This document shows, piece by piece, positions 5,601 to 8,711 of a DNA stretch of 64,000 nt; within the stretch, counting starts at the first letter, position 1; every line of letters starts with the position of its first letter. The DNA comes from Amoebophrya sp. A120 (lineage: Eukaryota; Protista; Dinoflagellata). A program made the translations under genes and the position numbers. The stretch covers positions 8,401,599 to 8,465,598 of the forward strand of contig CAJINV010000001.1 in NCBI GenBank assembly GCA_905178155.1. Direction: 5' to 3'. Under the pieces are notes generated by a model that worked only from the letters and a program-made list of their open reading frames with translations, made no database searches and was not told the origin of the DNA.

Positions 5601-8600
5601 ATGGAGCTCCGCATGAGAAACATTTTCAGCATGCAGATTTGCATTACAACTCTGGTGTGGGTACGTTTTTACTCAGGATAGCTTGTTCTGTTTGTTCATG
5701 CTGTCGGCCTGGCATTTCATGCTACTGGTTTCGGACACTGTTTCTTGGAAGGACACGATGGGGTCGGAAACCTTGATTTCCAGATCGCCGTAGAGTCGTC
5801 GTAAGTCGTGCAATACGCAGTCCAGGTAGAGCTCGCCCGTGCCTGTAGAAAAGTCACAATTTCAATTTCATCTCACATTACGTTGGCAATAAGGCGTGGT
5901 GTTCTGATGAACCAGAAGGAGCGAATGAATGGAAATGGATTCAAGTGCCCTACGTAAAGAAACAAATTTTTCCATATAGTCAATACAGTTCTGTTGTATC
6001 TCTACCTTGTATGACGTGTTCTCCGCTTTCCTCTACTTTCGTGTAGCAGATTGGGTAACTCTTGTCGATTTTTCTCAACCCCGCGACCATCTTTGGCAAC
6101 TCGGAAGGATTCAGTGGCTCCAGTGCGATTTTGCAGCAGGGGGTCGTGCTGTGCGCCAGGGGACGGAAGATTTCGATTTCTTCTTCGATGTCCTGACTTG
6201 TGATAGTGCTGGTCTTCACGATCGTGCCGTCGACGCCCCCAATCAGGACCCAGTTTCCGGCAGGCACGTGCGAAATCTCGACTCGATATCGGCCCTGCGA
6301 GATCCAGAGCGACTGCGCCACGCGGTTCGACCGGTCTTCATCGTCAGACAGCGAGTAGTTCTCACCCAGGACTTGCACGCGGTCGCCCTGTTTTTGATGA
6401 ATATTTATTCAGCGTTAGATCATGGTAGGCCGGATCAGGTGTACTCAGTCTGATACATAGATATCTATGTAGAGAAACGAAAATCATGTAGTTGTCCTGT
6501 CGTACAACGATACCGTATGCAGCGTTCCGCTCATCACCCTCCCCAGCACATCGAAAGTGCTCAGATCTGGGTGGTGGTAGCACTTGACTGTGTGCACCAC
6601 GAGCTCTCCCTTGGGGTCCAGTGCGAGCATGTCTGTCGCGACTTTCCCGGTCTGGTCTCCTGTGTACGTCCTGTGCACCTTCAACTCGGCCATCGTGCGC
6701 GGGTTTCGGATGTGCTTCACCACCGCATCCACCAGGGCGCTGTTCCCCTGGAAGAAGTGCTTGCCGACGGATTTCAGCATGTTCTTCGTGGACATCTTGA
6801 AGTCGCGCTTGGGCATGTAAATCCCGACGGATTCGTAGATCGGAATCAGCGTTTCCTTTTCTTCCCCCAGCGTGTGGCCGATCAGTTTGTACAGCGGCTC
6901 CAGGATAAACGCGACGAATGTTCGCACCGGGTCCTCGAAGTCCTCCGGTGGCTCGCGGGCGAACTTCCGCGTCTCCTCATTGAAGTAAATGTCGCCCCAA
7001 AGGAGCGGCGCGAATTCTTTCCGGTCGAAGCTGTTACCGTACGTGTCGGCGTAGCTGTTTTTGATTTATTCTTGGGAATCCACATTTACTTACATAGATT
7101 ATAGCAAATACACATCGAAACCTCTCCTCAAGTAGGCTTCACCTTCAAAAAGGTTCCCATAAGAAACTACGCACAAAGTCGAATAGTAAGCTAGTAGCAA
7201 ATTCAATACATGGACGCGAAGCTGCCCAGAGAAAAGACGAAGTTGAAGAGGCCCGCGGCGAAAATGACGTTGCCCTTCGTTGGGGATAAAATCTTGCGCT
7301 GCGCCGGCACGTTCAGCATGGTGTGGATGTTTTCCAGGCAGGTGTTCACCTCGTCAATGGTGTGCTTGATTTTGTGGTAGGCGTCCGCCGGCGGGAGCTT
7401 CAACTCCGTGACCAACCGGTCGATTTTGTTCACGCACAAAACCACATCCAGTCCCTCCTGCACGACGTGCTTCAGGAGCCGCTCGTCGTGCGCGCCGACC
7501 CCCATGACCACGTCCACGACGAACAGAACCCCGTCCGAAATGCGCACGCCGGCCACCACCTCGTCTTGGAAGTTCGGGTGGCCCGGGGTGTCCATCAAAT
7601 TGCACAGGTAGGTCTTGTCCGTGCCGTCGGGCAACAAGAGCGAGATCGGGCTCGCTTTGATGCTCAATCCGCGTTCTGCTTCGTCCCTTCTCGAATCCAA
7701 AAACCGCATCGATTCCTGCTGCTTCGCCTGGCTGTCCTTCAGCTTCGTAGACTTAAATTCGTGGGTCTCGCGGATGGCGCAATCCACCAGCGTGGTCTTG
7801 CCGCTCTGCAAATGCCCAACAACCGCAATGTTGCGGATCAGCTCGGGCTCCTGCATAATGCCCGCCATGTAGTCGAACTTGAACGACGTGTCCGGAATCT
7901 GATTTTCATACGAATAAATTTGCACGTGGAGAATGCCGGTGTAGCAGGAGGTGAAAAATCAGTACATTTCGAAAATCAAAGGTCAAGCAGGGTATTTAAA
8001 CATCAACAAGCAGCACTAGCACACTACTGGACTAAAACTTCTCCTGTTCCGCCCACTAGTCAGAAAACTTTCCCTTATCCATACCTGCTTCTCGATGAGG
8101 TCGAAGTCGAACACCCGTGCTGGCGGGATGATTGGCTCCGTGATCGGCATGGTATCCTCTTCCTGTACCAACACCACCGCTTCCGGGCCGTATATCTCCT
8201 CCGCCTCTGGGTAGTACTGCTTGTCTTCGTGGAGCACCACCGCTCGTTTCTCTGGTGGCAGGTCCGGGATCACCGGATTCACCGCGGCCGCGGCCGAAGC
8301 CGCCTCGTCCATGCCGGAGGCGGCGTAGCCCCCGCCCGGCATGGTGCTGCCCACATCGACATCATCGTCCAGGTCCTCGTCGTATCAAATGCAAAAATGT
8401 CTGGGTCTGGAAGAATGCAACTTGTCATGCTAGATCTGAAGCATGCAAAAATCTGTGTTGCATGATTACCAAAAGTCGTCCAGTTTTGACCAAGTCGGGA
8501 GGGAGTTTCTCATGCAGGATAGGCATGAAAGAGATCGCACAGAATCTGTCATGTTAGGCCCTGCATTCCAGACCTCATGGGTCATGGAAAACCTGCGTGA

Positions 8601-8711
8601 CAAATCTCGCAATCTTCCAGACCCAGACATTTTTGCATTTGATACGTCGCTGTCGTCCGACAAGTCGCCGCCGATGTAGTTTCCGAACTCGTCGTACGCG
8701 GATTCGTCCAT
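2649..8711 (-). CDS. EFTUD2: U5 snRNP 116 kDa GTPase (Snu114), about 9 exons
   Basis: [15 protein letters not shown]-terminus; [87 protein letters not shown]. All are diagnostic of Snu114. Confidence 0.97.
3489..3600. repeat. Perfect 33-bp inverted repeat with nested hairpins
   Basis: GCTTATCGCAGGAGCCTGCGGGCCGCCGCGGGC (3489-3521) and its reverse complement (3568-3600). The loop contains CCGCGGCCCT-AA-AGGGCCGCGG. Confidence 0.9.
3605..4448. other. Assembly gap
   Basis: Run of N. Confidence 1.
5034..5356. mobile_element. Introner (family C TIR) in EFTUD2
   Basis: TATTGTGAGGAAAAATGCCCCCTCCCCATAT...ATATGGGGAGGGGGGATTTTTCCTTGCGATA. Perfect TSD CGTGC. Removal restores EKPVHDDIERG. Confidence 0.9.
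5401..5680. mobile_element. Introner (family B TIR) in EFTUD2
   Basis: Perfect 32-bp TIR TATCCTGAGTAAAAACGTACCCACACCAGAGT. Perfect TSD GCTTG. Removal restores [15 protein letters not shown], which aligns with Snu114 NKKNKITMIAEPLEK. Confidence 0.95.
8383..8644. mobile_element. Introner (family A TIR) in EFTUD2
   Basis: Perfect 32-bp TIR TATCAAATGCAAAAATGTCTGGGTCTGGAAGA. Perfect TSD CGTCG. Contains an in-frame stop. Removal gives [12 protein letters not shown]. Confidence 0.95.

Follow-up and report, generated by a model that had tools for sequence, protein, structure and literature searches.

Introduction

More than 60% of the introns of Amoebophrya are non-canonical, with an A120 average of about 240 nucleotides (nt), and the introner elements described in A120 and A25 carry terminal inverted repeats (TIRs) as well as direct repeats over their borders, the latter given as 5 base pairs (bp) in a supplement legend (PMC7789003, Farhat et al. 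2021). U1 was undetected in A120, and the exact intron border was explicitly left unknown by the authors (PMC7789003). The present analysis concerns a stretch of 64,000 nt from Amoebophrya sp. A120 (the window; contig CAJINV010000001.1 of assembly GCA_905178155.1, positions 8,401,599 to 8,465,598 of the forward strand), which contains 13 elements with TAT...ATA ends, and in particular one of them, the focal element, which lies within the gene for Snu114, the 116-kDa GTPase of U5. Elements are named by their first position in the window (the focal copy is 8383), and their coordinates are collected in Table 1.

In Aureococcus, introners are said (the work is that of Huff et al. in 2016) to be short TIR elements with a target-site duplication (TSD), one canonical splice site being carried by the element and the other built in the TSD. 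The introners of Micromonas pusilla are likewise described as short elements that possess TIRs and a TSD and turn into introns on insertion, one canonical site being carried and the other coming from the TSD to give GT-AG introns (PMC11282704), whereas the elements considered here have TAT and ATA ends and no fixed GT or AG. The nonconventional introns of euglenids, for which circular products are known, are similar in their non-canonical borders, terminal pairing, TSD-like repeats and suspected origin from miniature inverted-repeat transposons (MITEs), but their pairing usually involves CAG/CTG at positions +4 to +6 with -8 to -6, in contrast to the pairing predicted here, which would begin at +2 (UAU/AUA) (PMC11282704). 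Introns of the tunicate Fritillaria borealis are also transposon-derived and non-GT/AG, and are removed by a tolerant spliceosome (PMC11282704; PMC13326754); they prefer AG-A..., whereas in the present elements there is no terminal dinucleotide preference beyond the U at +2 (PMC11282704).

The closest described system comes from the same organism, and the likeness to the introner elements of Farhat et al. extends to non-GT-AG ends, a predicted hairpin of inverted repeats, 5-bp direct repeats, a length of about 240 nt and a MITE-like origin (PMC7789003). Non-GT-AG removal, inverted repeats of 8-20 nt or more, a direct repeat of 3-5 nt and membership of a repeated family are all found in the window, and the elements are the published A120 introner elements, an object that is already known. 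They also resemble the TIR-DNA families (250-305 bp, TIRs, hundreds of copies) among the 58 introner families distinguished in A120, many of which are labelled 'TIR DNA, unknown' and have mostly non-canonical annotated ends (PMC12130899, Gozashti et al. 2025). Unlike the fixed rule considered below, the mechanism labels of that study vary by family (co-opt both, carry 5', carry 3'), and the 331 copies of A120 fam12 are tallied as gt 92, at 47, gc 21, ga 23 and other 148 (PMC12130899). These tallies follow the annotated border, and for that border every position inside a perfect TSD is open to an aligner. The true cut is thereby hidden, and published splice-dinucleotide tallies therefore reflect aligner choices. 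No rule that ties the cut to the ends of the element was found in the portions of the introner literature covered (PMC7789003, PMC12130899 including 22 of the 58 A120 families, and PMC11282704), and the single-register geometry set out here is a plausible unpublished refinement.

The reading put forward, tentatively and at somewhat less than an even chance, is that introner MITEs with a 5-bp TSD have inserted in coding exons and are removed as the element plus 5 nt, the cuts likely lying at a set distance from each end of the element.

Removal of the element plus five nucleotides

The focal element interrupts the Snu114 gene between codons 22 and 23 and, if read through, would contribute three in-frame stops; stop codons are carried by all 13 elements of the window. 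The 22 codons of exon 1 gave six matches, all of them to the N-terminal region of Snu114-family chains, with three (human Snu114 included) aligning over residues 1-22 and the others over residues 2-20, 2-22 and 32-50. The element is absent from P0002, an annotated Amoebophrya sp. A120 protein of 1006 amino acids that is 99% identical to the query (a neighbouring Snu114 exon) and that needs an intron of 267 nt across the focal site, i.e. the 262 nt of the element plus 5. Also absent from P0002 are the other two elements of this gene, 5401 and 5034, between which lies a micro-exon of 13 codons (39 nt; 5358-5396, minus strand) with both neighbours precisely removed: the alignment runs to human residue 684, continues with the 13 micro-exon residues and resumes at residue 698, and is gap-free once element plus 5 nt is taken out. 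A separate feature of the gene is an assembly gap of 844 N (3605-4448) inside one of its introns, adjoined by GC-rich near-perfect palindromes at 3352-3404 and 3485-3604.

Removal of the same kind is observed elsewhere in the window. Four contig sets (X1-X4), taken as RNA by guess and carrying no recorded RNA label, behave as transcripts because introns are joined out of them; the joints listed for two of these runs, X1 and X3, include 11 ordinary GT..AG joints and, in the same contigs, four that skip exactly an element plus 5 nt, namely 187 nt at 40734, 257 nt at 40993, 211 nt at 44783 and 273 nt at 52991. The window's own annotated protein, P0001, which is annotated on the same 16.5-Mb contig as P0002, lacks both 62323 (294 nt, 289 + 5) and 62986 (354 nt, 349 + 5). 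The element plus 5 nt is thus absent in nine of the 13 copies, four through transcript contigs and five through annotated proteins, while 1124, 36889, 37095 and 45075 are read from the continuity of open reading frames (ORFs); at 36889 the X1 and X3 contig pieces end at 36883, one base short of the TSD. Over 56001-64000, none of the X1-X4 contigs covers 62142-64000, and hence none reaches 62323. No match to an annotated protein for the gene at 38.4-42 kb was obtained in the length range searched, and a representative search with the 926-amino-acid ORF at 12969-15746 gave nothing beyond a relative at 54%, the protein of this genome itself not being among the results. The annotation of the A120 genome is transcriptome-driven, and non-canonical junctions were accepted when confirmed by RNA-seq (PMC7789003).

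Were the elements retained in the true mRNA, the joints would have to arise from reverse-transcriptase template switching or from annotation error. Template switching is classically associated with a hairpin next to a direct repeat, but at 62323 there is almost no repeat on which to switch; P0001 does contain two doubtful junctions within a repeat, yet identical joints are found in X1 and X3, two runs of a single sample, at depths of 36-154. Furthermore, the stops fall in conserved essential genes, and it is removal that restores the gap-free match to human Snu114. An artefact of this kind is considered very improbable.

At TSD mismatches, the retained copy is always the upstream one, i.e. that of the 5' exon (at 40734 through position 3, and at 40993 with the upstream A at position 2), and the process is therefore oriented by the transcript. 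This bears on the idea that expressed nuclei lack the elements altogether, in the manner of the internal eliminated sequences of ciliates. Loss of an element together with one TSD copy is the footprint of precise transposon excision, but a kept copy that is always sense-upstream points to a transcript-oriented process, the elements are kept in the assembly, and the fraction of words sampled from 36001-46000 that occurs in runs that are likely DNA is 0.88-0.89, in comparison with 0.54-0.58 for the transcript-like runs. We know of no nuclear dimorphism in this group, and excision from DNA is the least probable of the explanations considered, to be entertained only at the margin.

Family A (defined below) is removed in both orientations. 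Copies 37095 and 40993 are 93% identical inside and mutually inverted, and 40993 is also inverted relative to 52991 and 8383. Splicing in the contigs is seen for 40993 as well as for 52991, although these two lie in opposite orientations; the signals must therefore sit in the symmetric ends.

Raw RNA reads of two further sets, X8 and X9, match only the element end at 37312-37345, with flanks unlike the window, and are uninformative on the locus. The 96 raw X8 reads, which come from another sample under the same species label, match this 34-nt element end only and have a flank that is consistent but different, which places the family, in unspliced form, in abundant RNA from another strain.

Anatomy of the elements

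On the forward strand the focal element has a CGTCG flank on either side. Its inverted-repeat ends extend over approximately 36-41 nt, the 41-nt arms being 95% complementary, and its minus-strand RNA is predicted to fold into one long hairpin with paired ends (-124.8 kcal/mol; z = -12.2 against 200 shuffles), in which pairing proceeds from the TAT/ATA ends and extends into the TSD. The 12 elements listed in an earlier note on this DNA are all present where it placed them, with a TAT start, an ATA end and 5-nt flanking repeats (62323 effectively lacking a TSD), and a 13th, 62986, surfaced from the gene model. In the 12 listed copies, from 8/16 to 16/16 terminal bases are complementary, and nine elements have arms of 31-41 nt at 81-100% complementarity; terminal complementarity is weak at 40734 (8/16) and at 62986 (5/16). 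BLAST groups the 12 into family A (8383, 37095, 40993, 45075 and 52991), family B (1124 and 5401) and five singletons, and within the window it detected no copy beyond these 12; a 23-nt end motif has five matches in the window where none is expected.

Over all 13 elements the TSD matches at 5/5 positions in seven, 4/5 in four, 3/5 in one and 1/5 in one. Mismatches occur at sense position 1 in 37095 and 52991, position 2 in 40993 and position 3 in 40734, so that the earlier statement that they are confined to positions 1-3 holds for these four copies; it is wrong for 62323, where the flanks differ at positions 1, 2, 4 and 5, and for 62986, where they differ at positions 1 and 4.

For a broader sample, a 17-nt core taken from the end of family A was compared with public metagenome contigs and gave at least 151 loci, mostly in one assembly. 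Among the matches listed, 91 single elements have a perfect 5-nt TSD in 77 cases, a 4/5 match in eight, 3/5 in three and at most one matching base in three, and the TSD is exactly 5 nt because the sixth base is equal in only 14 of the 77 perfect cases listed. When the ends were not assumed, 85 of the 95 core pairs among the matches listed had a perfect 5-nt flanking repeat; 77 of these 85 lie at one offset, and 76 of the 77 have TAT/ATA ends. The coding strand could be assigned with confidence for 25 of the 91 copies, giving one oriented mismatch, which is too weak to use. As far as such sequence comparison goes, the metagenome copies settle the anatomy of the element and not the register of its removal. 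By their TIRs, TSD of fixed length, many copies and lack of coding capacity, the elements are classed as MITEs; a Pfam search found no domain in the four ORFs of the 1100-nt copy 45075. One assembly of a public metagenome collection holds well over 100 copies of family A, several of them in tandem within 1-2 kb (loci L003, L008, L010 and L014), and is likely another Amoebophrya-like genome.

Register of the cuts

The earlier note had proposed a cut after base 4 of the sense-strand TSD, which gives introns of the form N-TAT...ATA-NNNN. If k denotes the number of sense-strand TSD bases retained in the upstream exon, the span of 8379-8645 that it reported for the focal copy is exactly the k = 4 register, and the terminal dinucleotide pairs that it derived are reproduced for 12 of 12 elements. 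Perfect TSDs, as that note recognized, are uninformative on k: seven of the 12 listed TSDs are perfect, and because that of the focal copy is among them, all six slides, each of 267 nt, fit the protein equally.

The register is therefore read at other junctions. The transcript contigs allow k = 3, 4 or 5 at 40734, k = 2-6 at 40993, k = 1-5 at 52991 and k = 0-5 at 44783. In the annotated protein, the sequence GETLAK across 62323 allows k = 2, 3 or 4 (or 7), k = 5 giving Phe, and the sequence DYSLCDC across 62986 allows k = 4 or 5, k of 3 or less giving S-F-C. The register k = 4 is the sole single one compatible with every informative junction, and both cuts are likely made at one fixed register, with one base of flank removed ahead of the element and four bases behind it. 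The mismatched copies from which the register was to be read in cDNA have thus been followed in part: the contigs at 40734, 40993 and 52991 allow k = 4, while 37095 was accessible through ORF continuity and 62323 through the protein, where ACG TTC GCC, with its Phe, one of the two readings that the note had named as contrary to its proposal, is excluded by G-E-T-L-A-K.

A number of observations nevertheless weigh against this geometry. The narrowing to k = 4 comes from two protein-level junctions of one gene model, P0001, which itself includes two dubious 'introns' inside a Thr-rich repeat, and at 62323 the registers k = 4 (ACG) and k = 2 or 3 (ACC) are synonymous and indistinguishable in protein. 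All informative junctions lie in blocks that are common to both flanks, with the consequence that a variable register also fits. For 62986, folding predicts a terminal stem that is weak and displaced by 2 nt. A TAT...ATA inverted repeat at 41818-41979 (minus strand; 162 nt, AT-rich, 14/16 complementary, no TSD) lies in an ordinary GT..AG intron, 41989..41824, whose donor is 10 nt upstream of the 5' end of the repeat and whose acceptor is 6 nt inside the 3' end of the repeat; since splicing here is offset from the ends, a hairpin of this sort is not enough by itself to set the cut. The G found at +1 in six of the 12 listed copies has its counterpart in a C at position 1 of the TSD (five of 12 upstream and seven of 12 downstream copies), and in the 25 oriented metagenome copies among the matches listed G at position 5 (10/25) is similarly balanced by C at position 1 (9/25), which looks more like a weak palindromic target preference than like selection for GT. 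The 3' ends at k = 4 are AC, AG, AT, TG, TC and CC, with no common dinucleotide. We know of no spliceosome that tolerates 3' ends as varied as these as a rule.

Removal at the RNA level could also be real and yet obey no fixed register, the junction falling wherever the flanks share bases and varying from copy to copy. The junction blocks can be described in these terms (GG at 40734, TGC(T) at 40993, CATG at 52991, T at 62986 and possibly a single C at 62323), but the choice among shared blocks is less easily accommodated: at 62986 the flanks have TT in common at positions 2-3 and one T at position 5, and the junction falls at the latter, a 1-nt block rather than a 2-nt one, while at 40734 it falls in GG at positions 4-5 and not in CT at positions 1-2. 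Each of the blocks used contains k = 4, and this choice leans towards a fixed rule. The perfect TSD kept in 77 of the 91 metagenome copies among the matches listed, despite 7-30% divergence, could mean that the repeat is needed, yet at 62323 one base is shared and the annotated removal is still the usual element plus 5 nt. To our knowledge, no RNA-processing enzyme needs a direct repeat. Junctions guided by shared bases are a doubtful explanation, although one with a real chance of being correct. The fixed register proposed in the earlier note accordingly stands in so far as k = 4 is the only value common to all informative junctions.

Splice-site sequence and the machinery of removal

In the window, 15 canonical introns were read (38960-52895; 5843-8084, minus strand), of which 14 start with GTA and five with GTAT. 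At k = 4 the element-derived introns start N-U-A-U and place U-A at +2/+3, as in 14 of the 15 canonical donors, and the register was derived independently of that likeness. The one listed copy that can be read as GT..AG, 45075, falls in the proposed register, as had been stated; the other 11 of the 12 have no GT-AG in any allowed register. Of a U12-type intron there is little sign, as only 44783 gives AT..AC, with the start ATATTCAAG in comparison with an ATATCC-type donor, and the minor spliceosome is reported absent in Amoebophrya (PMC7789003). An Rfam scan of the window found no small nuclear RNA or other family.

The canonical introns have features of their own. Nearly all of the 11 read from contigs, among the joints listed, have a direct repeat of 1-6 nt across their junctions, often in the form AG|GT(A)...AG|GT(A); several canonical introns end in an A-rich tract followed by CAG, and two start with GTATTG(A/G)ATTTGC, resembling the family A end TATG(A/G)ATTGC with two T added.

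Under the preferred reading of a fixed register, once an element has inserted into a coding exon and duplicated its 5-bp target, the 5' cut would precede TAT by one base and the 3' cut would follow ATA by four, irrespective of the sequence on either side. Both cut sites would be drawn together by the terminal hairpin, and the terminal U-A(-U) would take the place of positions +2 to +4 in the GUA donor of this organism. Splice sites would then be chosen by a ruler and not by a motif, one base before and four after UAU...AUA, in either orientation and with any flanks, a proposal to which we lend not quite even credence. The likeliest machinery would be a spliceosome able to work without G at +1 and without a 3' AG, its identity being the least certain step.

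A fixed geometry could also be produced without a spliceosome, by a structure-specific endonuclease and an RNA ligase that measure from the terminal hairpin, a route suspected for the nonconventional introns of euglenids (PMC11282704). The missing 3' dinucleotide and the presence of G at +1 in just six of 12 copies would suit such enzymes, whereas the position of U-A at k = 4, exactly that of the canonical donor, would not. The terminal hairpin is predicted to be very stable and removal occurs in both orientations, but the 3-nt 3' overhang that such cuts would leave is at odds both with RNase III (2 nt) and with the bulge-helix-bulge of tRNA introns, and in the predicted fold the stem is continuous, with no 3-nt bulges. 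An RNase III-like cut geometry was set aside on this predicted fold and the 3-nt stagger, as was a tRNA-type bulge-helix-bulge (two 3-nt bulges and a 4-bp helix), the predicted focal stem being continuous through the cut sites. Euglenid nonconventional introns, which pair near their ends, leave as circles (PMC11282704), and the authors of the Amoebophrya genomes argue for a mechanism unlike ordinary splicing and did not detect U1, although A120 does have nearly all spliceosome proteins together with U2, U4, U5 and U6 (PMC7789003). Because the 3' ends are without precedent as a general spliceosomal acceptor, an endonuclease acting with a ligase remains a serious rival to the spliceosome, if an unlikely one.

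Other elements and features of the window

Table 1. Positions of the TAT...ATA elements and of the Snu114 features around the focal copy (window coordinates; TSDs are given as upstream/downstream copy in the sense direction).
Feature	Position	Strand	Remarks and basis
Element, family B	1124..1407	-	TSD CGACG/CGACG; ORF continuity after removal
Element in Snu114	5034..5356	-	TSD GCACG/GCACG; human Snu114 alignment and P0002
Element in Snu114, family B	5401..5680	-	TSD CAAGC/CAAGC; human Snu114 alignment and P0002
Snu114 exon 2	8085..8378	-	Aligned with human Snu114 residues 56-109; gene model
Sense-downstream TSD copy of focal element	8378..8382	-	CGACG
Focal intron at the proposed register	8379..8645	-	G-TAT...ATA-CGAC, 267 nt
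Focal element	8383..8644	-	Family A, 262 nt, TAT...ATA ends, within Snu114 coding sequence
Sense-upstream TSD copy of focal element	8645..8649	-	CGACG
Snu114 exon 1, coding part	8646..8711	-	22 codons; N-terminus as in annotated P0002
Element	36889..37038	-	TSD GTTCA/GTTCA; ORF continuity
Element, family A	37095..37345	-	TSD TCTCT/CCTCT; ORF continuity after removal
Element	40734..40915	-	TSD CTGGG/CTTGG; contig joint 40728>40916, 2 bases fit either side
Element, family A	40993..41244	-	TSD CATGC/CGTGC; contig joint 40986>41244, 4 bases fit either side
Element in FKBP-like gene	44783..44988	-	TSD GGACA/GGACA; contig joint 44777>44989
Long element, family A, 1100 nt	45075..46174	-	TSD GGAGG/GGAGG; ORF continuity of FKBP-like gene
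Element, family A	52991..53258	-	TSD ACATG/CCATG; contig joint 52985>53259, 4 bases fit either side
Element, effectively without TSD	62323..62611	-	Flanks AACGT/TCCCC; annotated protein GETLAK across site
13th element, 349 nt	62986..63334	-	Weak inverted-repeat ends, TSD TTTGT/GTTCT; annotated protein DYSLCDC across site

Two of the elements in Table 1, 44783 and the long copy 45075, belong to a single gene at 43000-46400 (minus strand), which yields a protein of 185 amino acids after removal of both together with one GT..AG intron of 1169 nt; by eye, this product resembles an FKBP-type prolyl isomerase. A contig of 714 nt from the transcript-like runs sits entirely within the 1100-nt element (45160-45873).

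The P0001 model skips, in addition to its two elements, 61205-62044 (840 nt) and 60348-60757 (410 nt), both on the minus strand, with non-canonical ends and no TAT...ATA, the second of them shifting the frame. In the DNA an uninterrupted frame of 1636 codons spans 57414-62324, and these 840- and 410-nt 'introns' are probably artefacts of assembly or alignment.

Scans of the window by ORF joining for further degenerate TAT...ATA introns gave no convincing new copy. Three candidate elements were rejected: 1719-2495, which has a perfect 5-nt repeat but no inverted-repeat ends and was judged a chance occurrence; 33672-33876, also judged chance; and 37501-37634, which is an ordinary GT..AG intron.

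Significance

How the non-GT-AG introns of Amoebophrya are removed is an open question (PMC7789003). If the reading of a fixed register is true, an offset measured from the transposon ends would be the first concrete rule for the non-canonical introns of A120, and it would predict where the excised RNA begins and ends as well as the junction sequence at each copy whose TSD is mismatched. Should the rule fail, junctions guided by shared bases would themselves be unusual. If it holds, any such transposon would be a ready-made intron whose 5-bp duplication is resolved exactly, which would explain how insertion is tolerated in essential genes, as illustrated by the three copies in Snu114, two of them 39 nt apart, and the geometry would provide a concrete clue to the splicing of introns without GT...AG signals in this parasite.

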